From Promethearchaeia archaeon (lineage in GTDB: Archaea > Asgardarchaeota > Lokiarchaeia > Sigyniarchaeales > SOKP01), in the NCBI GenBank assembly GCA_046497275.1, contig JAWOFX010000030.1:1-13520 (forward strand): a stretch of DNA of 13,520 nucleotides, written 5' to 3'. Shown piece after piece: positions 1 through 13,520 of the stretch. Numbering within the stretch: position 1 is the first letter of the stretch; every line of letters starts with the position of its first letter. Made by a program: the position numbers and the translations under genes. Below the pieces are notes generated by a model. It worked only from the letters and a program-made list of their open reading frames with translations, was not told where the DNA came from and did not search any database.

Positions 1-216
1 CTAAGAATGCATATAACTCCAGTAGATGTGTGTTTTTATGTATTGGAAGGTGAAGGAATAGTCCAAATTGGTAAAGAAAAAAAATCAGTTCAAAAAGATC
101 AATTGATTTTTAGCCCAGCAAAAGTTCCACACCGATTAAGCAACGAATCTGATAAAATTTTCAGATTTTTAGTAATTAAAACTCCCACTCCCACAGAAGA
201 AACTAAAAAATTATAA
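1..216 (+). CDS. Cupin domain protein, 5'-truncated by the window edge
   Basis: Frame 1 is open from base 1 (cta aga atg cat...). Cupin motif 1 (H-x-TPVDVCFYVLEGEG) and motif 2 (LIFSPAKVPHRLSN) are present. The ATG at 7 lies at the start of motif 1, so the true start is probably upstream. Confidence 0.85.
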   Translation, partial: LRMHITPVDVCFYVLEGEGIVQIGKEKKSVQKDQLIFSPAKVPHRLSNESDKIFRFLVIKTPTPTEETKKL

Positions 217-225
217 TTTTTTTTT
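217..225 (+). terminator. Oligo-T tract (T9), putative archaeal intrinsic terminator
   Basis: Nine Ts immediately follow the cupin TAA stop (214-216). Archaeal terminators are oligo-U tracts, but AT-rich DNA produces such runs by chance. Confidence 0.45.
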
Positions 226-301
226 ATTTATTAGATCAATTTATGCTAAAAGTCTAAAACTTATTCTATTTTGAATATAATATAGCAATCTACTAGGATT
301 T

Positions 302-306
302 GGTGA
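302..306 (+). promoter_or_regulatory. Shine-Dalgarno site GGTGA
   Basis: GGTGA lies 9 nt upstream of the ATG at 316 and is a typical archaeal SD core. Confidence 0.6.
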
Positions 307-315
307 TTAATATAA

Positions 316-981
316 ATGGAGAAAGAAAAGAATGAAAAGCAAACAGATATCGGTGTAGGTAAAAAAATATGTATTTGGCAAAATGTGGAGGAATGTGAAA
401 ATTGTAATTTAGATGAAGTATTATTTTGCCATCCAAAAACAAAATATTTGATTTATTTTGCCTTTCCTTTGTTTATAGGATTAATCCCTTTAATTTTAAT
501 CGTCATTTTCGCATTAATATCTTTACCCTTCAAACTTATATTTTTTATAAGTTGGGCGTTTTATGCTATGTTCTTTTTTAATATATGGGAAACACGAATT
601 TTATGTAATCATTGTCCATATTTTTCAAATGAATCTCAAAAAGTCCTTCATTGCCCGATTGATAAAGGTAAATATAAAGCCGGAACATATGATCCTGGAC
701 CATTAAGTTTATCTGAAAAAATTCAATTTGGCGTGGGAGGAATTTTATTGATGATCTTTCCGATACCTTTCTTAATAATTGCGGATTTATATTTAGCATT
801 GTTTATTTATGCAATTTCAATAGTTTTATGGATATTGAGTATTCAAAGTAATGTCTGTACGGATTGCGTTAATTTTGCATGTCCTCTCAATAGAGTACCA
901 AAAGATATAAAAAATAGGTTTATGGAGAAAAACCCGGTAATAAAGAAAGCTTGGGAAGAGAGAGGATATAAAATCGATTAA
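316..981 (+). CDS. Cys-rich integral membrane protein of unknown function (about 4 TM, three Cys clusters)
   Basis: 221 aa with an SD site. Two hydrophobic hairpins (about aa 44-91 and 136-176) and Cys motifs C19/C27xxC30/C38, C97xxC100/H112-C113 and C181xxC184xxxxC189P. Confidence 0.8.
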   Translation: MEKEKNEKQTDIGVGKKICIWQNVEECENCNLDEVLFCHPKTKYLIYFAFPLFIGLIPLILIVIFALISLPFKLIFFISWAFYAMFFFNIWETRILCNHCPYFSNESQKVLHCPIDKGKYKAGTYDPGPLSLSEKIQFGVGGILLMIFPIPFLIIADLYLALFIYAISIVLWILSIQSNVCTDCVNFACPLNRVPKDIKNRFMEKNPVIKKAWEERGYKID

Positions 982-1024
982 AAATTGGGAAATTTATGAA
1001 ATAAAAAAAGGTGTCTCCATAATT

Positions 1025-1981
1025 TTAGAGAATGGAGATAAAAAGATTGATAATAAGAATCATAATAGTAAATCCTAATACTCCTGCGAGGAAATAGAGA
1101 GGATTTCCTTTTTCTTTTTCAGGTAAAACTTCTCTTACTATAGTGTAGAGTATTACTCCTGAAACGAAAGAAAACAATAAATATAATATTTCTAGATTTA
1201 TTGGGTAAAAAATGTCCACAATTAAGTCAACTATCATACCAATAATTGCCGCAGATGCTAAAATTATCTTTTGAGTTTTTGTTTCCTTATAATCTAACTG
1301 TATATCTAAGTCGGTAAATACAATATGTTTACTAATAAATTTACTTTGTATTATTGTTCTAAAAAGTGCAAAAAAATAGAAAAGGATAGCAGAAATAAGA
1401 TCTACTTGTATTAGATTGATTAATATAATTCCAATGAGGAAATGATACGTAAAACTAGTGAAAAATCGCAGATTCCCTAATTCTTCGTTAATATGATTAT
1501 GAATTTTTATCTTAAAAATTTCAATATCGGATCGGATTTCTTTTCCTTGCTCATTTAAGCTATTTAAAACACTTGCTAGATCTTTCAACGCGAACTCATC
1601 TAATTTCTCATGCATCAATTCTTCACTTATGATACTCTCTATATTATCTTCTACTGCTTCTAAATTATTTTCCATTCTGATAAGTTTTCTTACTTTTTGC
1701 TGGGATTTAGATTCCACTTTTTGTAATATTAACTTTTCAGAAACATGAATGAAAACAAATCCTATTAAGACAAATAAATATTCAAAAAGAGTTAAGTGGA
1801 GAGGATAATCAGGTAAACGCTCAGCAATTTCTGGCAATACTACTAAAAAAAAGTATGCTATTGAAATTCCCGCGATAAATGAAATTGGAAAACTGGGGAG
1901 ATTTTTATCATAATACTCCGAAATGAAAAAAGTTATTCCAAAAGCAAACGCAAGAATGATGAGTGAGAATTTTATTAACAT
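1025..1981 (-). CDS. ZIP (Zrt/Irt-like) family-related divalent metal transporter with large cytoplasmic insertion
   Basis: SFIAGISIAYFFLVVLPE (TM2), GFVFIHVSEK (TM3), His in TM4 (YHFLIG) and C-terminal SGVILYTIVREVLPE match the ZIP fold pattern as I recall it. About 8 TM segments. Substrate cannot be determined. Confidence 0.7.
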   Translation of the reverse strand: MLIKFSLIILAFAFGITFFISEYYDKNLPSFPISFIAGISIAYFFLVVLPEIAERLPDYPLHLTLFEYLFVLIGFVFIHVSEKLILQKVESKSQQKVRKLIRMENNLEAVEDNIESIISEELMHEKLDEFALKDLASVLNSLNEQGKEIRSDIEIFKIKIHNHINEELGNLRFFTSFTYHFLIGIILINLIQVDLISAILFYFFALFRTIIQSKFISKHIVFTDLDIQLDYKETKTQKIILASAAIIGMIVDLIVDIFYPINLEILYLLFSFVSGVILYTIVREVLPEKEKGNPLYFLAGVLGFTIMILIINLFISIL

Positions 1982-2065
1982 TTGCTAGATTAAATTTTTT
2001 ATTTAAAATTTGATCCTTAATAATTTATAGAATAAATTAATTTTAAGTTTACTTACGCTGATATA

Positions 2066-2113
2066 GAGATGGAAATTCAAGCTCATGAAGAGAGAATAAT
2101 AAATTTCCATTTC
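2066..2113. repeat. 12-bp imperfect inverted repeat with 24-nt spacer
   Basis: GAGATGGAAATT (2066-2077) versus AATTTCCATTTC (2102-2113; reverse complement GAAATGGAAATT), an 11/12 match. Confidence 0.6.
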
Positions 2114-2122
2114 AGATATAAG

Positions 2123-2135
2123 AAAAAAAGAAAAA
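2123..2135 (-). terminator. Oligo-T tracts downstream of the 7TM gene
   Basis: The minus strand reads TTTTTCTTTTTTT, starting 5 nt after the stop codon at 2141-2143. Confidence 0.45.
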
Positions 2136-2140
2136 TATTT

Positions 2141-2893
2141 CTAAGTTTGAGTTAAAATAAAATTTTTTACAAATTGAGGCATATTTAATCCAAAATAAAA
2201 TGTGATCACACAAAACACTAAAATTATCCTAGATGTCACTAATCCCCAAATATCAAACCATATATAAGGAATAAGGGACCCAACGGTAAATAATATAAAT
2301 GATATCATTAGGAACTTTCCTTTTAACTTACTTTCTGCTACTTCTGCTTTTAATGCTTTATAAGCAAATAATACCCCCGAAATTAAAGCAGTAAATATTG
2401 CTGATAAATAAAATATTGTGGTGATTAAGCCCCATTGATAGCTAAATGGACCTATATAATTACCGATATAGCTAAAATCATAGAAAGTGAAAAAGACCAA
2501 AAAGAATTCGAGTAAAATGTTAATAAAGCCAAAGAAAATTAATATAGATTTTCTCCTTTTTGAACCAAGTAATTTTGTGAACGCGAATAACCAAAACATT
2601 ATAGCTAACGGAGCATAGTAAGTCATAGTCAAAGAAACGATGATTGTAATGTTTAAATAAAACAATTGAGACAATGTGGGATTTATTAGATTCCCAATCA
2701 ATATTGAAGGAAACACAATTGCATCAGAAAACCATGGTCCAGCCAAGCCAAGCCAAGCTAAACCCACATAAAGATGTTCTGGAGATTTGTATTGAAAATA
2801 CCTAAGAATTATTAGAATTGCGATAATAACCGCTACAACTACAAAAAAGAGACTAAACAATCCTTGCATAATTTCTGAAATTTCTAAATTCAT
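2141..2893 (-). CDS. Stand-alone 7-transmembrane protein of unknown function
   Basis: 250 aa with seven hydrophobic segments (about aa 10-30, 41-66, 76-106, 117-138, 154-178, 194-213, 215-236). Basic loops follow TM1, TM3 and TM5. No soluble domain is attached. Confidence 0.8.
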   Translation of the reverse strand: MNLEISEIMQGLFSLFFVVVAVIIAILIILRYFQYKSPEHLYVGLAWLGLAGPWFSDAIVFPSILIGNLINPTLSQLFYLNITIIVSLTMTYYAPLAIMFWLFAFTKLLGSKRRKSILIFFGFINILLEFFLVFFTFYDFSYIGNYIGPFSYQWGLITTIFYLSAIFTALISGVLFAYKALKAEVAESKLKGKFLMISFILFTVGSLIPYIWFDIWGLVTSRIILVFCVITFYFGLNMPQFVKNFILTQT

Positions 2894-3035
2894 GATTCTC
2901 TCATCTTTTTAATTATTAGTGATTATAATATTTATGAAAATTCTTTTTATTAATTTTTCATGTTTTTTAGATTAATGAGGAGAAAAATAAAATTACTATT
3001 ATCAATTTTTATTAACCACTAATAATATTTTGCTT

Positions 3036-3986
3036 ATGAATGTTAATCAATTAGAGTTTAACCCTTTATCAGAAAAAAATATTCTACAAATCCATCAAAT
3101 GTGTGAGGAAAATGTAAGATCTGTTTCTCATTCTCTTAAAACGTTCCAAGAAACGACATTAGAAAGTGATTTATTTAATCCTCATCTGAGTATCGTAGTT
3201 TCAACAAAGCAGAAAGAATTGATTGCCTTTTTTCTGGTTGTTTTACGCAAATCTTTAATATTAAAAAGATTTAGAAAAGTAGCTGTATTGAAATTTTTTG
3301 TGGTTGATAAAAAGTGGAGAAATAAAGGGATTGGATCTTATTTACTTAATCTATTAACAGAACGAATCAAAAATTCGGATCATAAATCGTTCAGAATGAA
3401 ATTTGAAGTAATGTCTTCAATGCCCGATTATCTATTTCCTGGATTAAATCCCAAACATACAGAGGCATTCTATTTTCTTAGAAAACATGGGTTTAAGAAA
3501 GGAATAGAAAGGATTAACCTATGCATATCATTAGAAGATTTAGAATTAAATCAACCATCCTCACAAAAGAAAAGATTTCTTATATCTCGAGCAGAAAAAA
3601 AAGATCAAAATGAATTAACTAGTTTAAAATTTATGCCAAAAGAGGACCAACTTGGGTTTTGGTCGGAAGAAATTGCCCTTACATTTAAAAAGAAACCAAT
3701 AACTACTTTTATTGCAAAAGATTTGGATAAAAATAAAATAATTGGTTGGGCTTCACACTCTGTTCAATTTCCAGGAAGTTTTGGTCCAACAGGGGTTAAA
3801 AAAAGTGAAAGAGGGAAGGGAATAGGGACTCTACTTTTAAAATGGTGTTTATGGGATCTAAAAACTAATTATAGAATTAGTAGAGTAATCATAAATTGGG
3901 TTGAAATAGACAAAATATATTTTTATTCAAAATCAATTGGAGCACATATTTGTGAAGTATACTGGACAATGAAAAAAAGGTTTTAA
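3036..3986 (+). CDS. Tandem GNAT-family N-acetyltransferase
   Basis: Two acetyl-CoA-binding motif A copies: FVVDKKWRNKGIGSYLL and GSFGPTGVKKSERGKGIGTLLL. ATG 3036 is preferred over the in-frame TTG at 3030. Confidence 0.88.
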   Translation: MNVNQLEFNPLSEKNILQIHQMCEENVRSVSHSLKTFQETTLESDLFNPHLSIVVSTKQKELIAFFLVVLRKSLILKRFRKVAVLKFFVVDKKWRNKGIGSYLLNLLTERIKNSDHKSFRMKFEVMSSMPDYLFPGLNPKHTEAFYFLRKHGFKKGIERINLCISLEDLELNQPSSQKKRFLISRAEKKDQNELTSLKFMPKEDQLGFWSEEIALTFKKKPITTFIAKDLDKNKIIGWASHSVQFPGSFGPTGVKKSERGKGIGTLLLKWCLWDLKTNYRISRVIINWVEIDKIYFYSKSIGAHICEVYWTMKKRF

Positions 3987-4086
3987 TTCAAGAGTAATTA
4001 GATTTTAAAAATAGAATTTAATTTTTATAATTCATTATACAATCATAATCATTTATTTGGTTAATTTTTCTTAGGGAAAAATTGTA

Positions 4087-4995
4087 ATGAAAAATTTTTT
4101 AATCATTAGTTCGACAAAAGATAAGGCATCTCTTAATATTCGAGATAAACTATTAGGATCTAAATCCATTTCATTTGAACGCAGTATAGATAAATGGCAC
4201 AATAATGAATTATTTGAGTTAAAAAATATTAATCTGAAGGATGATAAATACCATCCGTTCTTACAAGAAAATAAAGTACTCTTGGGAATTACTAATAAAC
4301 GACTTATATTTTTGGACGATTTAAAATTAGAGGATTCTAATATTGACCCAGATATTCTTATTTTTGCGAGTAGACATGCGTCGAAAACAGGGCGTCCCTC
4401 ATTTTTAGTTCATACAACTGGAAATTGGGGTGGAGATATTAGATATGGAGGGAAAAAGAAAGAATTATCCTTAGCAAGTGCTTTGATGGTAAAAGCGGGG
4501 TATTTATCTCTTAAAGAAAAAGCAAATCCGAGAAATGTAAATAATTTTTCTATAGATTTGGAAGTATCTCATCATGGTCCCACAACGCTGGAGAGACCAC
4601 TCGTATTCATAGAATTAGGAAGTAAAGAAAGTCAATGGCATCATAATGAGGCAGGAATTGTAGTTGCTGAGGCAATTATCGAAACATTGATAAAATATAA
4701 GAAATATTCTCAAGAAAGTTCCCAGAAAATTGGTGTAGGATTTGGCGGCACTCATTATGCTCCTCAATTTCAAAAATTGATAAATGAAAATAACATCGCA
4801 ATTTCATATATTTGTCCTAAATATTATATTAAAAATTTAGATCAGGATCTTATAAAACAAATGATTAATAAAAACTTAGAACCAGTCGATTATTTTCTCT
4901 TAGATTGGTCCGGTATTAATTCTGATGGAAAAAAGCATTTACTTCCATTACTTGAAAAATTTAAAATTCCCATAAAGAAAATTAAGGATTTTTAA
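4087..4995 (+). CDS. dtdA: D-aminoacyl-tRNA deacylase, archaeal DTD2 type
   Basis: Family motifs IFASRH, VHTTGNW, EVSHHGPT, FIELGS and GFGGTHYAP, in a 302-aa protein. Confidence 0.93.
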   Translation: MKNFLIISSTKDKASLNIRDKLLGSKSISFERSIDKWHNNELFELKNINLKDDKYHPFLQENKVLLGITNKRLIFLDDLKLEDSNIDPDILIFASRHASKTGRPSFLVHTTGNWGGDIRYGGKKKELSLASALMVKAGYLSLKEKANPRNVNNFSIDLEVSHHGPTTLERPLVFIELGSKESQWHHNEAGIVVAEAIIETLIKYKKYSQESSQKIGVGFGGTHYAPQFQKLINENNIAISYICPKYYIKNLDQDLIKQMINKNLEPVDYFLLDWSGINSDGKKHLLPLLEKFKIPIKKIKDF

Positions 4996-5016
4996 AATTC
5001 TTTTATTTTTTAGTAG

Positions 5017-5877
5017 TTAATTCTTAATTTCTTCAAAATATTTTATTAGATTTTTAAAAACGTAATCCACAGGTCCAAAACCTTGAGTTGCGCATCTCGA
5101 AAGTATTTCTTCAAGTAATTCATGATTTTTAATTTGAGAAGAGGGAGTAATATTTAGTTCTCGTATATTATAGAAACTTCTCCAAAAGTTTGTAGGCCAA
5201 TTGATAAGAAGACTGAGGCTTTCGTTATATTTTTTTTGCCCCTCCTCGCTCAATTCAAGTCCATCTTCAATAGTGTAGTAATTCTCATCGTCTTTCTTTT
5301 CTATAGAAATTATTCCATCTTTTTCAATCTCTTTCATTTTTGATTGTATTGTTTCCATATCTAACTCATCATTGAATATTTTATTCATATTTTTCAATAT
5401 TTCTTCATCTTTCTGACTTTTTAGTTTAATCATTGTATAATTTCGGGCTAAAATATTATATTTGAGAGGAACAGTTTCATGATCTATTTTGTTATATTGT
5501 ATAAGATTGCCTAATATTTCCTTCGCGACTAAATATTTGATTTTAGTCTGATCTTCTTTAGAGTATTTAGTTTTGAAAATTTTGGAGCTAAAGTACTCAC
5601 CATAAAGGGCTTTTAAAAGATTTTTAATCGCATGGTATCCATCAGCAACAGCATTTGACATTATTTCCAATGTTTTTATGCGATAATCAATATCTGAGAG
5701 AAATTTATCTTTATCTAACGGAATTTGACGAATAAGGTGAGGCTTAACATCAATTTGACTTAAATATTCATTCCACTTCTGCTGAAAACGAAAATTCTGA
5801 GTTTTTGCAATCCCAACAAGCTTTCGTATTACATCATATAATCTCTCTAAGAAGAATTTTTCATTAATTTCTGTCAA
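5017..5877 (-). CDS. Hypothetical protein with a possible central winged helix-turn-helix
   Basis: 286-aa ORF with a TTG start preceded by AAGGGA. The segment DEEILKNMNKIFNDELDMETIQSKMKEIEKDGIISIEKKDDENYYTI has a helix-helix-'GII'-beta-hairpin pattern like a wHTH. Confidence 0.7.
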   Translation of the reverse strand: MTEINEKFFLERLYDVIRKLVGIAKTQNFRFQQKWNEYLSQIDVKPHLIRQIPLDKDKFLSDIDYRIKTLEIMSNAVADGYHAIKNLLKALYGEYFSSKIFKTKYSKEDQTKIKYLVAKEILGNLIQYNKIDHETVPLKYNILARNYTMIKLKSQKDEEILKNMNKIFNDELDMETIQSKMKEIEKDGIISIEKKDDENYYTIEDGLELSEEGQKKYNESLSLLINWPTNFWRSFYNIRELNITPSSQIKNHELLEEILSRCATQGFGPVDYVFKNLIKYFEEIKN

Positions 5878-5993
5878 TTTGTGAAATCCCTTTTGAATAA
5901 TAATCTATTTTAGAATTATTTTAACTTTAATCTTATTTAACATTTTTATTAAAATTTCGATAATATATGGATAAATGGAATCCGCTTTAAAAA

Positions 5994-7181
5994 TTATTTT
6001 AATGAATGCATAACTCCTAAAACTTTATCAACTTGTTTTTCGTTTATAACCAATGGAGGGAGAATCCTAATTGTGGTTAATCCGGCATTTAATAATAATA
6101 ATCTCATTTTTTGAGCCTTTTGGATAAGATCATTTATCCTTATTCTATAATCCACCCCAATCATCAACCCTTTTCCCCTCACTTCTCTTATTAACTTTTC
6201 TTCTTCAGCAAAATCAGTTAAATCATCTAAAAATCTTTTTCCTTGCTTCTCTGCGTTTTCAACAAGATTTTCCTCTTGAATTATCTCGATCACAGCATTT
6301 GCAGCCGCACAACAAAGGGGATTTCCTCCATATGTGGTATTATGTTCTCCAATTTGCATTTTTTCAAAGATTTCTTCCGAGGAAATCATTGCGCTCATAG
6401 GCATTCCACCTGCAATAGCTTTAGCCATGCATATTACGTCAGGAACAATATCATAATGTTCAAAGGCAAACATCTTTCCTGTTCTTCCAAATCCTGTTTG
6501 GACTTCATCATCTATAAGGAAAATATCATTATCTTCACAAATTTCTTTTAGTTCTCTTACAAAGTCATAAGGTGCAGGATAAACTCCACCTTCACCTTGT
6601 ACTAATTCAATAAATATTGCGATGGTATTTTCATTTATCAATTCTTTAACTGAATCAATATCACCATAGGATGCGAATTTTATATGGGGAGATAACCAAG
6701 ATAGAAATGCCTTTCTATATTTTATATTATGTGTCATCGCTAAAGAGCCCAAAGTTCGCCCATGGAATGCCCTCTTAAATGCTATTACCTCAGGCTTATT
6801 TTTTCCCCTATTATTGGCTAAAACCAGCTTCAAGGCTGCTTCTATTGCTTCAGTACCACTATTTCCTAAAAATGTTTGTTTTAAAGGTTTAGGGGTTATA
6901 TTTGCTAGTTTTTCTAATAGTTTGTATCTCACTTCAAGGGGATAGCTTGGAGGGACCATCGTTAATTTTTCTACTTGTTCTTGTACAGCCTTAATAAACT
7001 TGGGATGGGAGTGTCCTATATTAACGACGGCGTGACCTGCTACACAATCTATATATTCATTATCTTCCTCATCAAAAAGTATAGCTCCTTTACCCTTCTT
7101 TATAACAATATCTTTTTTGGGGAAAAGTTTGCTATGGAAAAATCGTTCGGCTTCTATATTATTTGTAAAATCCTTCTGCAT
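5994..7181 (-). CDS. lysJ: Class III PLP-dependent aminotransferase, LysJ/ArgD-like ([LysW]-aminoadipate semialdehyde / acetylornithine transaminase)
   Basis: YIDCVAG..VNIGHSHP, NSGTEAIEAALK, AFHGRTLGSL, VQGEGGV, DDEVQTGFGRTG, AK(PLP lysine)AIAGG and TTYGGNP. The T-H-N-I-K-Y-R stretch after FHGRT resembles LysJ, but lysJ versus argD cannot be settled from motifs alone. Confidence 0.8.
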   Translation of the reverse strand: MQKDFTNNIEAERFFHSKLFPKKDIVIKKGKGAILFDEEDNEYIDCVAGHAVVNIGHSHPKFIKAVQEQVEKLTMVPPSYPLEVRYKLLEKLANITPKPLKQTFLGNSGTEAIEAALKLVLANNRGKNKPEVIAFKRAFHGRTLGSLAMTHNIKYRKAFLSWLSPHIKFASYGDIDSVKELINENTIAIFIELVQGEGGVYPAPYDFVRELKEICEDNDIFLIDDEVQTGFGRTGKMFAFEHYDIVPDVICMAKAIAGGMPMSAMISSEEIFEKMQIGEHNTTYGGNPLCCAAANAVIEIIQEENLVENAEKQGKRFLDDLTDFAEEEKLIREVRGKGLMIGVDYRIRINDLIQKAQKMRLLLLNAGLTTIRILPPLVINEKQVDKVLGVMHSLK

Positions 7182-7478
7182 AATTGAGATTCACATTTTT
7201 TTCATATGAATATAATTTTTTAAGTTTTTTAAACCAATTAATTCTTATTTTTTTTTATAAGTTAGAACAAATTGAGATTTCATAATTATTAAAATAATTA
7301 TTAGATAGCATAAACAGTTCTGAGGAAAATCTAAAGAAAGAAATTTTATAAAATACTAGCAATTTTGTTGTATAATTAAAGTAATAAGTAATAAAAACGA
7401 TAAATAACAAAAGTTCTAACTCAATAGTTATATCAAATTAAATATAAATTTTAAAAATATTTACACAGAGAAAATATC

Positions 7479-7859
7479 ATGAGATTAATTCATTTTGCTG
7501 TAGCTTCAAATTCAGAAGAAGAAAGCGACAGATTTTTTATAACATTATTAAATCTTCAAAAAGCAAGAGATTTTTCTGTTCCTTCTAGATTAATGGAAAA
7601 ATTTTTTGAAGTTCAGAAAGAGCAAAGAATTATAAGTTATGAAAATGAGGATTTTGCAGCTGAGGTATTTATAACCGGGGATCAAAGTAAACGAAAAGAT
7701 CTTTTTACTCATGTTTGTTTAGAAGTAGAAAATAGAGATAAAATGGTTAATGAAGCGCAAGAATTGGGATTCAAGATAATCAAAGTTCCGAGAGAAAATA
7801 GTGAGGGGTATTACTTATTTATACAAGATGGTTTTGGAAATATTTATGAAATTAAGTAA
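7479..7859 (+). CDS. VOC (glyoxalase/bleomycin-resistance) family protein
   Basis: N-terminal IHFAV...SDRFF..LL, mid HVCLEV and C-terminal LFIQDGFGNIYEIK. The paired beta-alpha-beta-beta-beta modules carry H/H/E metal-ligand positions. Confidence 0.85.
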   Translation: MRLIHFAVASNSEEESDRFFITLLNLQKARDFSVPSRLMEKFFEVQKEQRIISYENEDFAAEVFITGDQSKRKDLFTHVCLEVENRDKMVNEAQELGFKIIKVPRENSEGYYLFIQDGFGNIYEIK

Positions 7860-7940
7860 TTTGAAATAAGGGGAATAACATAAATTTTTAAAACTGTTTT
7901 TTTATATAATTTCTTGAACTACTATTAGTTCCAGTAGGGG

Positions 7941-8750
7941 TTGAATCAATTGCCATCATCATCATCATATAAATTTAAAATAGTAATGGGAGGATCAGAT
8001 CCAGAGAAACTTCCATTTTTTGAGAATTCTTTTTTTAATGGAACAGATTTCTCTCATATTGGCATTAATATAAACCCTATTGAATGCATAACAAGTTTTG
8101 GAGACTCTTATCTCTTTATTTTTTGGCATCTTAACCAAATGCAGAGATTTGAGTTTATGTTATCCTCTTTTTGCCACGGAGCATATGGTGGAATAATTTG
8201 TGTCGACAGATCTCATTTCGAATCTTATAAAGAAGCTATTAATTGGATTAAGATATTTCAAAGGCAGATTAAAAAGATTCCATTAATAATCTTCAGTTTC
8301 CAATCTAAAAATTCTCAAAATGAAGTATCAAATAAACAAGTGAGAAAATTAATAGAAGTATATAATCTTAAGGGCCTTTTTGGAATTTCTTCAGATGAAA
8401 AAATTAATTATCTACTTAAAAAAGATTTCTTCAGATTTGTTATTAAGATATTTAATGAGTCTAATGTAAATGAACAGGAGTTTTCAATTATGTTCCCAAC
8501 AGAAGAGAAGGATTTTATTAAATTCTTTGAAAGTTTTTCAACATGTCCTATTTGTAAAAAGAAAAATCACATTGAGAGTCTGAAAGAATTCTATTTTAGT
8601 AAAAGAGATGATATAATAAGACTAAGAGACAAATTTTTTGATTTGATGGATAAATCTTCTTATTTAGAAGAAAGATGGAGTAATTCATTGGATCTTGGGA
8701 TTTTATGTTGTTCGTGCTATAAAAAATATTTTAGTGATTCGGGTTCCTAA
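7941..8750 (+). CDS. Rab/Ras-like small-GTPase-fold protein with degenerate G-motifs and a C-terminal CxxC...CxxC domain
   Basis: YKFKIVMGG, IGINI, LFIFW, QRF, SSFCHGAYGGIICVD and ESYKEAINWI align colinearly with the Rab consensus. The C-terminus has C202PIC205 and C256CSC259. The TTG start is preceded by AGGGG. Confidence 0.8.
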   Translation: MNQLPSSSSYKFKIVMGGSDPEKLPFFENSFFNGTDFSHIGININPIECITSFGDSYLFIFWHLNQMQRFEFMLSSFCHGAYGGIICVDRSHFESYKEAINWIKIFQRQIKKIPLIIFSFQSKNSQNEVSNKQVRKLIEVYNLKGLFGISSDEKINYLLKKDFFRFVIKIFNESNVNEQEFSIMFPTEEKDFIKFFESFSTCPICKKKNHIESLKEFYFSKRDDIIRLRDKFFDLMDKSSYLEERWSNSLDLGILCCSCYKKYFSDSGS

Positions 8751-8771
8751 CTAATTACGAAATTCAGTAAT

Positions 8772-9185
8772 TCAAAAAAGTTCCGCTTTCTTAATGATTG
8801 TTTTATGATCAAAAGCTAATTTAAGATTTGGAAGTTTTTTTAATGGAATTATGTCCAATTCCGCAGCATCATCTTGCGCTTTTGGTTTCTCATTTTTGGT
8901 TATTGGTTCGCACATATATGCGACACTTACGGTATGTCCTCTTGGATCCCTGTCCGGTTTAGAAAAAACACCGATTAATTTTTTGATTTGGACATTGATA
9001 TTAGTCTCCTCCTTCGCTTCTCTAATACACGCTTCTTCGACGGTTTCTCCAATATCTACAAATCCTCCAGGTAAGGCATATTCACCTTTAAAAGGGGGAT
9101 TCTTTCGTTTTATAAGAATAATATGATTAGAATCATATAAAATCACGGCATCAACTGTTAACAAAGGGGTTTTTGGTTTAGCCAT
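8772..9185 (-). CDS. Nudix hydrolase, similar to archaeal ADP-ribose pyrophosphatase (MJ1149 type)
   Basis: Nudix box GGFVDIGETVEEACIREAKEETN plus LIKRKNPPFKG, PDRDPRGH, DDA and LAFDH. ATG 9185 (MAKPKTP) is preferred over the TTG at 9227. Confidence 0.9.
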   Translation of the reverse strand: MAKPKTPLLTVDAVILYDSNHIILIKRKNPPFKGEYALPGGFVDIGETVEEACIREAKEETNINVQIKKLIGVFSKPDRDPRGHTVSVAYMCEPITKNEKPKAQDDAAELDIIPLKKLPNLKLAFDHKTIIKKAELF

Positions 9186-9247
9186 TTTTTCAATTATAAG
9201 ATTTTTAATTCTAATAAAATTTTCCAAAAATATAATTATTAAATAGT

Positions 9248-12202
9248 TTATTTTAGAATTATTTTTTTGATATGGTTCTTTATCTCATCTGGTTCTAAAT
9301 CTTCTTTACCTATAAAGCCTTGTCCGAATTCATGAGATCCACCTCCTTTCCCACCAAAATGAATGAGAATTTCTCGAATGAAATTTCCTAAATGAATATC
9401 TAATTCTTTTGAAGCTTTTGATCCTAACATTCCCATTACTGTATACCCCTTTTTAGTCTTATTAATCAGTATAGTTATCGCATATTCGTCTTCTTTTAAG
9501 ATATTTTGGTTTAAGTTCTTTAAGTCTTCTTGAGAAAGATTCTCAAAATCTTCAATAACTAGCTTAAAATCTCTATATTTTGAGGCCTCTGAGAGTAATT
9601 CTTTTAGATACTCATTACTTAGTAATTTTTTCATTAAATCAAATTTTTCTTTTCCTTGTTGCCACTCTTCATAAAATTGCTTTACTTTGGTAATTAATTT
9701 TTCTTTCGGAATATTTAAAAAATCAGACAGCTCCGTTAGTATATCTCCCTTAAAGGTTTCAGCTGAATTGAGAGTCAGATCCTGTTCGTCTATTTTTCCT
9801 GTAGATAATGCTTTGTTAATATTTTTCCATTTCTGAAATAATTCTTTCACTCGCCCAACAATTCTTTCTTTCTCTATTCCAAAAAAAGATTTTAATTCAC
9901 TTATAATTTCCTTATTTCTTTTTTCGATTTGTTTAGATGCTTTTCCAGCGGTGAATATTAACCTTACAACCCCATCTTGGATTTTTTGTGATTTAATAAT
10001 ATTTATATGCCCTGTTTCAGAAGTATTATTCAAATGGGTTCCACCACAGGCTTCTACATCCACACCAGGCACTTCTACTATCCTTACTTTAGTTCCAGGT
10101 ACTGCTCCCCCTTGATATATTTCCATTCCATATTCTTGTTCTGCTTCAGAACGAGGCATAAATCTAAGATTCAAACCAATTCCTGCATCAACTATTTTGT
10201 TTGCTCGTTTCTCAATTGCGTTAATTTTTTCCGTTGTAAGTTGTTCGTAATGAGTAATATCGAGATGTGATGATTTTAAGGTTTTTTTTGCTCCCGCCTG
10301 ATTCACATGACTTCCTAAGATTTCTTGAGCAGCAGCATTTACTATATGAGTTGCAGTATGATGCTGTGAGAGTTGTCTTCTCCATTCTTCATCAACTTTT
10401 ATAGTCACTGTCTCGCCTTCTTTGAAAATGGGTTTTTCTTTAAGAACATGAATAACATGATTCCCTTGTTTAAATACGTCTTCAAATCTCTGACCATTTA
10501 TTGTGCCAACATCATGTAGTTGCCCTCCAGCTGTCGGATAGGCCACAGATTTATCCAATATCACCTTATTATCAATAATTTTAAGAACTTTTGCTTTATT
10601 TTCTACTTTTGTATAATCATAATAATATAATGATTCTGTTTCGGGGATATCATCTAAATCAAGTTCGATATCTTTCTTTGCTGCATCTTCTTGTTCTGAT
10701 TGTTCATGTCTCTGTACAACCAGATTAAAGAAGTTATCAGGGATTTTTACTTTAACATCATATCTTTTGGCAGCTTGTTTTACCATATCAGGACTGATTC
10801 CATTAGAATCATACATCTCTATTAACGTCTCTGTGTCTATTTTGCCCTTATTAAATTGTTTTTCTAGTATTTTATTAGCCTTTTTCTTTGTCGCATAATA
10901 TTTTTCTTTTTCCACTTCCAATATTTCTGTTATCTCATTTAAATTTTCTGAAACCTCTGGAAAAAGATCTTTCAATTCTTCAGCATGCCACTCACACACA
11001 TTTGGGATTTTAATATCCCAATTAAATTTATCAATAAATCCGATGGCTCTCCGGAATATTACACGGAGATTATATCCCCCCCCTACATTAGATGGTAGTT
11101 TTCCATCATGAATCGCAAATAGAAGACTTCTGGCATGTTCTGCTATCGAGTATAATCCTGTCATTGGCTGAATTATATCTCGTAATTTCTCAACAGTTAT
11201 ATCTAATTCTTCTGCAACTCTCTGCCATGCCGCATCCATATCCTCTACCTCATCAGTGTTTAAATATGCAGAATATTTAGAAAATCTGTTATATAATTTA
11301 AGATCTAATTTAATATTCGTAATACTCCTTAACTTAGAAAGCACATATGGGAAAGTAGCTTCATAGAGATTTGGAGTTCCTTGCGAGAACCATGCCACTC
11401 GCTCTTGTCCCAATCCCATATCCAATACCTTTAATTTTAATTCTCTTGGACCATTAGGAGTTTGTTCAAACATCGTATAGACTTGATTAAATAATTCAAC
11501 ACCTCTGCTAAAAAACTCAAGACTGCATCCGAATGACCCTCCACCAGCCCAGGAATCCTCATGAATTGTAATTTCATCCTTCGAAAGTCCGACACCAATC
11601 GTGATAAAATCATGCATATCCATAAATAATTGACCTTGATCCCATTCTTCAGGAGAGACGAATTGGTGTTGTCCTATCATTACAAATCCTGTACAATGAG
11701 CTGAAGTTATTCCTACATTTTCTATATCATTAAAGCGTAAACAAAATTGAGGGATTAGTAATTTTTTTGCGGGAGGTTCTTCTTCACCAGTGATAACATA
11801 TGGTTGAAAGGCGGATATAGAAGCTATTGTAAACTCAGAGGTAGGATTCCATCTTGCTACACAGGGATACCGTTTAATCGGGACATATCCTCTTGGTTCT
11901 AATATTTCCACAATTTTTTCCCAAACTCCAATATAAGATAATTTTTCAGAAGTAGGGTTATTAATTACTACATCGAAACCTCCTGAACATGCAGGATCTC
12001 CACAAACTTTTCTCTCTTTATGAGTAGTCCAAAAAAATGTTCCGCAACTAACACATTGTTTTCTCATATATCCTAAATTCCTAAGTTCCTTAGTTGGAAA
12101 GTATGCATCAGGATTTTTTGAGGCAATTTTTTTAAAGACTGTTTTTAGTTCTTTATCAGTTCGACAATCCTTAAGAAGTTCTATCTCATTTTCAGAAAGC
12201 AT
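9248..12202 (-). CDS. alaS: Alanine--tRNA ligase, archaeal type
   Basis: N-terminal CxxC..FW..CGDPxC, motif 2 QFCLRFNDIENVG, motif 3 DMGLGQER, GGGYNLR, editing-site HTATH and CGGTH, QAGA, and C-Ala GGKGGG. 984 aa. Confidence 0.97.
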   Translation of the reverse strand: MLSENEIELLKDCRTDKELKTVFKKIASKNPDAYFPTKELRNLGYMRKQCVSCGTFFWTTHKERKVCGDPACSGGFDVVINNPTSEKLSYIGVWEKIVEILEPRGYVPIKRYPCVARWNPTSEFTIASISAFQPYVITGEEEPPAKKLLIPQFCLRFNDIENVGITSAHCTGFVMIGQHQFVSPEEWDQGQLFMDMHDFITIGVGLSKDEITIHEDSWAGGGSFGCSLEFFSRGVELFNQVYTMFEQTPNGPRELKLKVLDMGLGQERVAWFSQGTPNLYEATFPYVLSKLRSITNIKLDLKLYNRFSKYSAYLNTDEVEDMDAAWQRVAEELDITVEKLRDIIQPMTGLYSIAEHARSLLFAIHDGKLPSNVGGGYNLRVIFRRAIGFIDKFNWDIKIPNVCEWHAEELKDLFPEVSENLNEITEILEVEKEKYYATKKKANKILEKQFNKGKIDTETLIEMYDSNGISPDMVKQAAKRYDVKVKIPDNFFNLVVQRHEQSEQEDAAKKDIELDLDDIPETESLYYYDYTKVENKAKVLKIIDNKVILDKSVAYPTAGGQLHDVGTINGQRFEDVFKQGNHVIHVLKEKPIFKEGETVTIKVDEEWRRQLSQHHTATHIVNAAAQEILGSHVNQAGAKKTLKSSHLDITHYEQLTTEKINAIEKRANKIVDAGIGLNLRFMPRSEAEQEYGMEIYQGGAVPGTKVRIVEVPGVDVEACGGTHLNNTSETGHINIIKSQKIQDGVVRLIFTAGKASKQIEKRNKEIISELKSFFGIEKERIVGRVKELFQKWKNINKALSTGKIDEQDLTLNSAETFKGDILTELSDFLNIPKEKLITKVKQFYEEWQQGKEKFDLMKKLLSNEYLKELLSEASKYRDFKLVIEDFENLSQEDLKNLNQNILKEDEYAITILINKTKKGYTVMGMLGSKASKELDIHLGNFIREILIHFGGKGGGSHEFGQGFIGKEDLEPDEIKNHIKKIILK

Positions 12203-12223
12203 TTTTAATCACTATCAATCAAG

Positions 12224-12233
12224 AATAGCTATT
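12224..12233. promoter_or_regulatory. Perfect 10-bp palindrome AATAGCTATT in the alaS/sirtuin divergent intergenic region
   Basis: Self-complementary as read, 22-31 nt upstream of the alaS ATG. The regulatory role is inferred. Confidence 0.35.
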
Positions 12234-12400
12234 AACCATCAAATTAAGGAATATAGGATTTCCTAAAACTTTTACTTTACGATTATTAAAAATTATTCCT
12301 TCACACTCTATAGAAAGAGAATATTAAAAAGAAAATATCGTTATAGAACTTATAAATATAATCATATATTCCAATTTCAAGTTTTAAATGATAAGAAATT

Positions 12401-13162
12401 ATGAAAAATAAAAACACTCTAAAAAAAAATGATTTTAAACTTGCAGCCGAATGGATCCGAGAAGCAGACCATGCTGTTATCTTTACAGGAGCGGGAGTTT
12501 CTGTTGAAAGCGGGATACCTCCTTTTCGTGGTGAAGATGGGTTATGGAATAAATATAATCCAATTTTTCTGAATACCACCTATTTTAGAGATAATCCTAA
12601 AAAATCTTGGGAGTTAATCAAGGAGATTTTTTATGATTTTTTTGGAAAAGCTAAACCAAATAAAGCTCATTATATTATCGCAGAATTAGAAGGGGAAGGG
12701 TTAATAAAAGCCATAATTACTCAAAATATTGATAATCTTCATCAAAAAGCAGGAAGTAAAAATGTTATCGAATTTCATGGGACAGCCCAAACTCTTACGT
12801 GTATAAATTGTGAAAAGAATGTAATTGCTGAAGAGTATTTGAGTGATTTGCCACCACGATGTCCTCATTGTAATGGATTATTGAAACCAGATTTCGTATT
12901 TTTTGGAGAACCAATTCCTCATAATGCACATTCAAAAACAATAGATGAAGTAACAAAAGCAGATCTATTTATTCTCGTTGGAACTACAGGAGAAATTATG
13001 CCTGCATCAACCATTCCATACATTGCTGAGAAAAATGGAGCCCATTTTATCGAAGTTAATATAGAAGAATCTCAATATACTCGATCAATAGTAGATATCT
13101 TCTTAGAGGGAAAAGCAACAGAAATTTTCCTAAACCTGAAAGACCATTTAAAAGTAATATAA
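12401..13162 (+). CDS. cobB: NAD-dependent protein deacylase (Sir2/CobB family)
   Basis: TGAGVSVESGIPPFRG, TQNIDNLHQKAGS, catalytic FHG, Zn ligands CINC/CPHC, KPDFVFFGE and GTT...PA. Confidence 0.95.
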   Translation: MKNKNTLKKNDFKLAAEWIREADHAVIFTGAGVSVESGIPPFRGEDGLWNKYNPIFLNTTYFRDNPKKSWELIKEIFYDFFGKAKPNKAHYIIAELEGEGLIKAIITQNIDNLHQKAGSKNVIEFHGTAQTLTCINCEKNVIAEEYLSDLPPRCPHCNGLLKPDFVFFGEPIPHNAHSKTIDEVTKADLFILVGTTGEIMPASTIPYIAEKNGAHFIEVNIEESQYTRSIVDIFLEGKATEIFLNLKDHLKVI

Positions 13163-13245
13163 ATAATTTAGATTGATTTCTTTAAAGTAAAATTCTCGTT
13201 TTGATAACCATTAATCACTTTGTCATCTCTCTCAAATTTTTGGAG

Positions 13246-13263
13246 TCAAAATAGCGATTTTGA
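13246..13263. promoter_or_regulatory. Inverted repeat TCAAAAT-AGCG-ATTTTGA, candidate dimeric transcription-factor site
   Basis: Perfect 7-bp arms with a 4-nt spacer, in the intergenic region about 85 nt upstream of the ATG at 13348. Confidence 0.45.
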
Positions 13264-13334
13264 ATTTATCCTAAGTATTAAATATCAGACTATAATATTT
13301 TTTCATCAATCCAATCTAATTTAAAAAAAATATG

Positions 13335-13339
13335 GGTGA
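13335..13339 (+). promoter_or_regulatory. Shine-Dalgarno site GGTGA
   Basis: GGTGA lies 8 nt upstream of the ATG at 13348. Confidence 0.6.
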
Positions 13340-13347
13340 AATTCAAA

Positions 13348-13520
13348 ATGGTAAATGTGTTAGTTACTGTTAAGTATCCTCCACATAAAACTGAGGAAGT
13401 TATTAAAGTATATACTTCGGGAAAAGCAGCAGAATATCCTGATTTTGTAAAGAGAAAATTTCAATGGGCTACACCAAATTATGATGTGAAAATCTATAAT
13501 GTATATGATATTCAAGATGA
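13348..13520 (+). CDS. Hypothetical protein, 3'-truncated (not in the ORF track)
   Basis: SD plus ATG, with 57 open codons to the window edge: MVNVLVTVKYPPHKTEEVIKVYTSGKAAEYPDFVKRKFQWATPNYDVKIYNVYDIQD. The beta-alpha-beta pattern looks protein-like. Confidence 0.75.
   Translation, partial: MVNVLVTVKYPPHKTEEVIKVYTSGKAAEYPDFVKRKFQWATPNYDVKIYNVYDIQD

Follow-up and report, generated by a model that had tools for sequence, protein, structure and literature searches.

We analyzed a 13,520-nt stretch of DNA from a Promethearchaeia archaeon (GCA_046497275.1, contig JAWOFX010000030.1, positions 1 to 13,520; the whole stretch is referred to here as the window) and found that the Rab-like protein encoded at 7941-8750 ends in an autonomous, strongly conserved module. 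This module, the last ~85 residues of the protein, matches no described family or solved fold. As a new lineage-specific Cys5-His module family in Lokiarchaeia, with clear anatomy and distribution, it is solid at the level of sequence, and it is very probable that the family is real, conserved, metal-binding and undescribed. The explanation that we favor overall, with somewhat better than even confidence, is that of a mobile, zinc-clasped docking or assembly module of one Loki lineage. The module looks like a lineage-specific docking piece and not a repair for a dead GTPase.

Anatomy of the Cys/His module

The gene and its parts are given below; residue numbers here and throughout count from the TTG at 7941.

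7941..8750, + strand: whole open reading frame (ORF), 269 amino acids (aa) from TTG 7941, a Rab/Ras-like G-fold with a degenerate phosphate-binding loop (P-loop) followed by the C-terminal Cys/His module
7965..8456, + strand: G-like domain, approximately residues 9-172, Rab/Ran fold (Pfam Ras and Roc below cut-off; Foldseek)
8493..8735, + strand: module, residues 185-265, with helix 190-198, knuckle 1, helices 211-219 and 223-245, a loop, knuckle 2 and helix 257-264
8544..8570, + strand: knuckle 1, C202-P-I-C205-K-K-K-N209-H210 (column conservation; DSSP β-bridge pair around CPxC)
8697..8717, + strand: knuckle 2, G253-I-L-C256-C257-S-C259, at the N-terminus of the last helix (column conservation)

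Translation of 7941-8747 (+) gives Cys at 202, 205, 256, 257 and 259 and His at 210, with the first bases of these codons at 8544 (C202), 8553 (C205), 8706 (C256), 8709 (C257), 8715 (C259) and 8568 (H210). The local motifs in the window protein are CPICKKKNH and GILCCSCYKKYF. In the second motif, C256 and C259 form the CxxC pair and C257 is an additional Cys within it. The interval from C205 to C256 is 50 residues, and in the AlphaFold2 prediction it contains helices 211-219 and 223-245 and a loop.

When modeled alone with AlphaFold2, the module was predicted to form four helices with a predicted local distance difference test (pLDDT) score of 86.9, rising to 92-95 around both motifs. A β-bridge spans CPxC, the last helix begins at 257, directly after C256, and each CxxC lies between two helices. 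In the prediction, the first CxxC occupies a knuckle or hairpin and the second marks the N-terminus of a helix, as in a knuckle-plus-helix finger of the treble-clef-like kind. In the simplest reading of this arrangement, the module would bind zinc and the two Cys pairs would be adjacent in three dimensions. The six Cys and His positions listed in an earlier note on this DNA agree exactly with the translation and its coordinates, and the ~50 residues that it placed between the pairs were confirmed by counting. It had also proposed a folded domain instead of the disordered tail of Rab proteins, which is borne out by the confident AlphaFold2 fold and the conserved columns described below, and a split knuckle with a helical insert, a structural idea that holds in the model, where the bound zinc would be a further step.

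Conservation and selection

A full-library search with phmmer gave 273 matches at E ≤ 1e-3. Columns were counted in 134 copies (of 157 sequences, the 134 that carry the tail region), and additions from a profile search brought the collection to 183 copies. Across the 134 copies, knuckle 1 was nearly invariant, with C202 in 132, P203 in 130, C205 in all 134, N209 in 129 and H210 in 126 (the others having E or D). The same was true of knuckle 2, where G253 was found in 133 copies and C256, C257 and C259 in 132 each; L214 (129) and F195 (128) were conserved as well. The signature that emerges from the alignment is F-x3-[FY]-S-x-C-P-[IVL]-C-x3-N-[H/D/E]-x3-L-x2-F-[YF]-[FY] ... G-[IV]-P-C-C-x-C-[FY]-K-K-x-F.

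The complete C202-C205-N209-H210-C256-C257-C259 pattern was present in 156 of the 183 module copies, so the prospect raised in the earlier note, that the Cys pairs might not be conserved, did not materialize. H210 was replaced by Asp in 6 copies, by Glu in 8 and by nothing else, the pattern expected for a position that serves as a metal ligand. The other deviants from the seven-residue pattern were truncated rows or had N209 changed to Leu or Ile, and the four CxxC cysteines were present in every complete copy. Two CxxC motifs 20-80 residues apart arose in 0.4% of 200,000 shuffles of the window protein; conservation is the stronger argument that the motif is real.

One deviant suggests how the ligands may be divided. 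In the tandem protein P0158 (311 aa), the first copy has jointly lost N209, H210 and C257 and has retained C202, C205, C256 and C259. Because the three residues were lost together with the core cysteines intact, the ligands probably split into a core C4 set and an accessory pair, H210 and C257.

Selection was estimated from the comparison with the closest orthologue, P0002, only, as farther orthologues are saturated at synonymous sites (dS >1.5 or undefined). For this pair, the nonsynonymous (dN) and synonymous (dS) rates were 0.073 and 0.875 for the module (dN/dS 0.08), compared with 0.118 and 0.532 for the G-like domain (dN/dS 0.22).

Searches for known relatives

No convincing match to the module was obtained in Pfam, NCBIfam, the PDB sequence search, Foldseek, VIA-align or the ESM Atlas, and a described domain, another outcome that would have overturned the proposal of the earlier note, was found in none of the family, structure and PDB-sequence searches. 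A Pfam fragment of DUF4428 (12.7 bits, E 0.12) was taken as noise. A YgiT-type zinc finger in NCBIfam (E 0.0074, 16.5 bits against a cut-off of 20.2) covered the first knuckle only and was set aside as motif-level noise. PADLOC and PHROGs gave only marginal matches.

The best matches were weak similarities to DksA/TraR C4 fingers and to the Rad50 zinc hook. By shape, the top ESM Atlas matches were TraR/DksA C4 fingers, with template modeling (TM) scores by query of 0.40-0.41 over 46-47 aligned positions in residues 5-86. The corresponding Pfam family, PF01258, gave no match to the module at E up to 10, and DksA chains were absent from the VIA-align and Foldseek rows for the module. By sequence, the profile search of the PDB weakly matched TFE (E 0.0056) and, over helix-CPxC-helix, the Rad50 zinc hooks 1l8d and 6zff (E 0.024-0.026). 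Comparison of the module profile with Lokiarchaeial Rad50-hook segments by hhalign gave a probability of 26.8% (E 6.8e-4) over 40 columns comprising CPxC and the next helix, which falls well short of establishing homology, and the hook region of LmuB gave weak matches to P0186 (E 1.6e-4) and to the window module (E 0.025). The Rad50_zn_hook profile (PF04423) matched none of 54 scored candidates of the genome and detected neither of its module copies. Literature searches and the papers on Asgard GTPases that were consulted gave no account of the module, which is not proof that it is undescribed.

Distribution and stand-alone genes

When 400 genomes of the phylum were scanned with a profile, the module was detected in 125 of the 134 genomes of the family to which the window belongs (f1); in the sister families, 1 of 14 genomes of f3 and 2 of 4 of f4 had it. 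The rest of the phylum gave only two matches, both marginal (E about 1e-4). The module is therefore confined essentially to one Lokiarchaeial family and order. The sources are named Lokiarchaeota, Lokiarchaeia or Promethearchaeota, together with single Odin- and Sigyn-labeled bins, and no eukaryotic counterpart of the module was detected.

The genome of the window has exactly two carriers, the window gene and a stand-alone gene on another contig:

L002:1495-1914 (G000:C118 of the same genome), - strand: complete stand-alone paralogue, 139 aa

Stand-alone genes of ~145-165 aa in six other genomes (L005, L007, L009, L011, L013 and L014) share the neighborhood of this paralogue: a DUF711-type gene precedes the module gene on the same strand, and a small gene follows it in convergent orientation. 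In the two loci scanned with Pfam (L002 and L005), DUF711 was confirmed, and the locus L015 is flanked by a related DUF711-type gene. Upstream of the module, the stand-alone consensus shows heptad-like spacing of Leu. We suggest that the stand-alone form may be ancestral and independent of GTPases.

In some related genomes, module genes lie close together (G146:C296 3077-3394 and 4612-4935; G175:C341 21841-22137 and 22768-23106; G170:C6 381105-381437 and 382070-382360; G166:C16 6746-7081 and 7622-7888), which suggests local tandem duplication of the family. We also noted that many stand-alone matches in the 400-genome scan contain one in-frame stop. These stops probably reflect the 129-position profile, whose N-terminal lead-in overruns the true start, rather than recoding.

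Architectures and fusion partners

A census of 182 module-bearing clusters gave the following architectures:

G domain followed by module: 90 clusters
module alone: 70 clusters, some of which may be fragments
leucine-rich repeats (LRR) followed by module: 9 clusters
module followed by G domain: 5 clusters
module in the middle of a protein of 354-366 aa with no Pfam match: 3 clusters
unassigned N-terminal region followed by module: 3 clusters
tandem modules: 1 cluster
module followed by unassigned C-terminal region: 1 cluster

Fused partners were Ras-, Roc- and Arf-type G domains, both live and dead, as well as LRR domains. The host proteins, of 84-476 aa, were GTPases, LRR proteins or stand-alone forms, and none had ATPase heads. 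The P-loop lysine is retained in 67 of 85 module-fused G domains, and the strict GxxxxGK[ST] motif is found in 32 of 75 G-module clusters. The most widespread form of the module is the one without any GTPase. In a module tree of low resolution, the LRR fusions formed one group (support 94), and the well-supported branches required at least 4 switches between the G-fused and unfused states.

These counts bear on two proposals of the earlier note. Its suggestion of a mobile Asgard domain, also attached to active GTPases or standing alone, stands as far as mobility, active partners and independent occurrence are concerned; "Asgard" is too broad for what is essentially one Lokiarchaeial family and order. 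Its idea that the module supplies a function that the dead G domain cannot was not supported, given the 67 lysine-keeping G domains and the GTPase-free form as the most widespread one. From the same two observations, it follows that the module is older than, and independent of, the decay of the G domain in the window protein.

No residue of the G domain co-occurs with the module, and C49, C78, H79 and C87, which we considered as second-site ligands contributed by the G domain, were rejected since none is conserved among module-fused G domains (C49 is Cys in 35 of 85). The spare pair of H210 and C257 would therefore be intrinsic to the module.

The LRR-module proteins (P0186, P0188, P0189, P0191, P0196, P0197, P0199, P0200 and P0201; 262-297 aa), taken with the Roc-type G-module proteins, are reminiscent of the components of ROCO proteins, here divided among different genes. 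In P0093, P0117 and P0131 (354-366 aa), the module is central, with flanks of 130-150 residues on each side that have no Pfam match, and genomes G275 and G277 of the same genus contain open frames of 361-366 aa akin to them. A search for longer homologues gave 3 matches among crowded candidates and was uninformative.

The host protein and its neighborhood

The full-length AlphaFold2 model, built with family alignments, had a pLDDT of 88.7 and a predicted TM score (pTM) of 0.82. Residues 9-172 fold as a Rab/Ran-like G domain. Foldseek recovered Rab8, Ran and Rab5 (E 4e-11 to 1e-9) over ~175 columns, and the best match, Rab8 (4lhx; E 4.2e-11, TM by target 0.74), identifies a Rab/Ras fold; no alignment extended into the tail. 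In Pfam, the G-like domain scored 19.3 bits for Ras (cut-off 21.6) and 18.7 for Roc (cut-off 27), both below threshold. Where the GxxxxGK[ST] of Ras-superfamily GTPases is expected, the protein has GGSDPEKL, and the host G domain is probably unable to bind nucleotide normally.

Close homologues of the whole ORF numbered nine, and every named one was labeled Lokiarchaeota. The N-termini of the orthologues begin 4 residues ahead of the first strand, YKFK, which fits a start at 7950. In addition, a GGGG within 7937-7952 stands immediately before the TTG at 7941 but 9 nt before the second TTG at 7950. On these two grounds, the true start is probably TTG 7950, for a protein of 266 aa in which the real residue numbers would be 3 lower.

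The gene is flanked by a glyoxalase-family gene on one side and by a NUDIX-AlaRS-Sir2 block on the other, and the gene order around P0002, an orthologue with 81% identity, is the same as in the window. Elsewhere in the window, a 286-aa ORF without a Pfam match (5017-5877, - strand) lies between the genes for a D-aminoacyl-tRNA deacylase and a class-III aminotransferase; the orthologous contig L032 has a 291-aa gene without a Pfam family at the matching position.

A proposed docking function and its alternatives

In the mechanism we propose, C202 and C205 together with C256 and C259 would hold one structural Zn(Cys)4. The zinc would clasp hairpin 1 (α1-knuckle-α2) onto hairpin 2 (α3-knuckle-α4), and a second, accessory pair of ligands would be provided by C257 and H210, the latter being Asp or Glu in 14 copies. 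The module would then dock its fused cargo, be it a GTPase switch, an LRR or a coiled coil, either onto a shared partner or onto other proteins that carry the module. The window protein could be a fixed adaptor, given that its G domain appears to have lost normal nucleotide binding and that the module beside it is its most constrained part. That the function is that of a metal-stabilized docking or assembly piece we consider close to, and if anything slightly short of, an even call.

Several observations weigh against this proposal. Many of the clusters in which the module stands alone derive from short contigs of metagenomes and could represent gene fragments, and the stand-alone genes did not adjoin GTPase genes in the neighborhoods examined. 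The lack of any co-occurring G-domain residue points the same way. Six conserved ligands misfit a plain one-zinc site, and a binuclear cluster or an iron-sulfur (Fe-S) center is conceivable. Finally, the module is mildly basic (median isoelectric point 8.75, mean net charge +3.6), which would also suit binding to nucleic acids or membranes.

The surplus of ligands can be explained in two other ways, both of which we consider unlikely. If the module were related or analogous to the Rad50/SMC zinc hook but built from a single chain, two modules could share a further metal ion through their H210/C257 pairs, so that carriers with a Roc-type G domain, LRR or coiled coil form dimers or split ROCO-like complexes. 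The matches to the PDB hooks and to LmuB and the hhalign alignment described above are what this leads one to expect, as are the two ligands beyond the C4 site, their joint loss in the first copy of P0158 and the heptad-like Leu spacing ahead of the module in stand-alone forms. However, the Rad50_zn_hook model misses both module copies, the hhalign probability is far below that of established homology with the aligned His out of register, and the window protein has neither an SMC/Rad50 ATPase nor a long coiled coil. An elaboration of this idea, which strikes us as rather improbable, is a self-recognizing metal-bridged connector: each copy would have its own Zn(Cys)4, and H210/C257 pairs would share a further ion in the fashion of a zinc hook to build non-covalent ROCO-like signaling complexes from the products of separate genes, namely Roc/Ras-type G domains, LRR sensors and a coiled-coil carrier that is nearly universal, with the window pseudo-GTPase as a subunit that stays "plugged in" for good and pairs with the one stand-alone carrier in its own genome. 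Prediction of a homodimer from two full-length copies and four Zn scored 0.00 in both runs and weighs neither way on pairing. Alternatively, the five Cys and the His/Asp/Glu position could bind Fe-S or a labile or binuclear metal and act as a redox or metal sensor that regulates the attached signaling domain in these anaerobes. Six conserved ligands instead of four, the exchange of the His for carboxylates only, a pattern typical of positions that ligate Fe or Zn, and the fusion to signaling domains (GTPases and LRRs) are all in keeping with a sensor. A CPxC knuckle followed by CxxC at a helix N-terminus is, however, the classic geometry of structural zinc, the module shows no likeness to known Fe-S motifs or families in Pfam and NCBIfam, and its neighborhood contains no redox partner.

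The remaining possibilities concern what the module might contact or replace. A zinc finger that tethers GTPases and LRR proteins to DNA or RNA would account for the basic character noted above, for a basic residue at position 229 in 96% of copies and at K261/K262 in ~60%, and for the weak similarity to the zinc ribbon region of archaeal TFE and to a PHROG annotated as a phage "DNA binding protein" (E 0.063). The small gene convergent with the stand-alone gene also reads, from its sequence, as a winged-helix regulator, without a Pfam match. Nevertheless, charge ranges from -9 to +14 across copies, such that a basic surface is not conserved, all of the matches are at chance level and fall mostly over the coiled-coil-like lead-in and CPxC, and Ras-like GTPases and LRRs are atypical partners for nucleic-acid-binding proteins; this function is rather unlikely. 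Membrane targeting, in which a lipidated CC pair or a FYVE/C1-like lipid surface stands in for the prenylated Rab tail, is quite improbable. In most fusions the module does sit where a Rab would have its tail, its CCxC is followed by a basic-aromatic [FY]-K-K-x-F, and a published study found Asgard Rabs without tails that end in Cys and left their membrane attachment open (PMC10933270). Unlike a prenylation signal, the CCxC is set back 10 residues from the C-terminus, in a confidently predicted fold at the start of a helix and after an invariant G-I-P. No FYVE, C1 or PHD family was detected in the Pfam search, and the module also occurs N-terminal to G domains, in mid-protein and on LRR proteins, which is impossible for a C-terminal lipidation signal. 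It is very unlikely that the module arose or was kept as compensation for a dead G domain. The lower dN/dS of the module than of the G-like domain would suit such a role, and the close subfamily uniformly pairs a degenerate P-loop with an intact module; the census, with its lysine-keeping and strict P-loops, its widely distributed GTPase-free form and the greater age of the module, argues against it. Least probable is a degenerate HNH (ββα-Me) nuclease finger. The language-model neighbors of the stand-alone paralogue were phage HNH fragments (0.86-0.89, where 0.9 is the threshold for a lead), and CxxC ... N-H ... CxxC superficially resembles HNH. We rejected this identity, as a PF01844 search of the genome scored 24 candidates with 0 matches, hhalign against Lokiarchaeial HNH domains gave a probability of 1.4%, no HNH chains were among the fold matches and there is no conserved second metal-binding His or Asn downstream.

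Significance

Asgard archaea encode dozens of Ras-superfamily GTPases, for which partners and localization signals are almost unknown. One of the domains fused to these GTPases is now defined by a signature, six candidate ligands, a predicted architecture, a census of fusions and a narrow phylogenetic range. The ~85-aa module, or the natural 139-aa protein, offers a small handle for finding the docking partners of Lokiarchaeial GTPases, and the tempting idea of a module that rescues a dead switch has been corrected. Should the module pair with itself through a shared metal, it would represent a new route to ROCO-like assemblies from separate genes.

Comparison with known systems

The known systems closest to the zinc-clasped docking module that we favor include C4 zinc fingers of the knuckle-plus-helix (treble-clef-like) kind, such as DksA/TraR (PF01258). 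As in the module, a short hairpin of these proteins holds a CPxC knuckle, the last ligand of a second CxxC falls in the first turn of a helix, both motifs are flanked by helices, and they provided the nearest shapes in the ESM Atlas (TM 0.40-0.41). The module differs in that it gives no PF01258 match, falls below a TM of 0.5, has two extra invariant ligands (H210 and C257) and occurs in another taxonomic and domain context. About 17 residues separate the knuckles in DksA, compared with ~50 helical residues in the module. The Rad50/SMC zinc hook (PF04423; 1l8d and 6zff) resembles the module in its helix-CP[VI]C-helix, in a downstream His and in Leu/aromatic periodicity, and the sequence matches, while weak, were repeated. 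In both, zinc would tie two helical hairpins together, the zinc of the module being putative. In Rad50, however, two chains contribute one CxxC motif each, at the tips of the very long coiled coils of an ATPase, whereas the module has both in one chain of 80 residues.

The tail of eukaryotic Rab proteins, with its CC or CxC prenylation motif, likewise follows a Rab-like fold and has adjacent cysteines. The module is folded, its cysteines are internal, at the helix start in G-I-P-C-C-x-C-[FY], and it is also found in N-terminal positions or without a GTPase. Database searches with the Asgard proteins studied in earlier work found no homologues of Rab escort protein or Rab geranylgeranyl transferase (PMC10933270). 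With class-i pseudoGTPases, the window protein shares a G-fold without a canonical P-loop, purifying selection and a joined module of the interaction type. This likeness concerns the host protein only, as the P-loop lysine is retained in most of the G domains that carry the module.

Several of the domains fused to Asgard GTPases are drawn as "?", that is, of unknown function, in a published overview (PMC10933270, Fig. 1f). Among the accessory domains of these GTPases, roadblock/LC7 and longin are, like the module, small and non-catalytic, also encoded alone and subject to lineage-specific shuffling. The module differs from them in being a helical Cys/His domain rather than an α/β one and in belonging to one Lokiarchaeial family and order.

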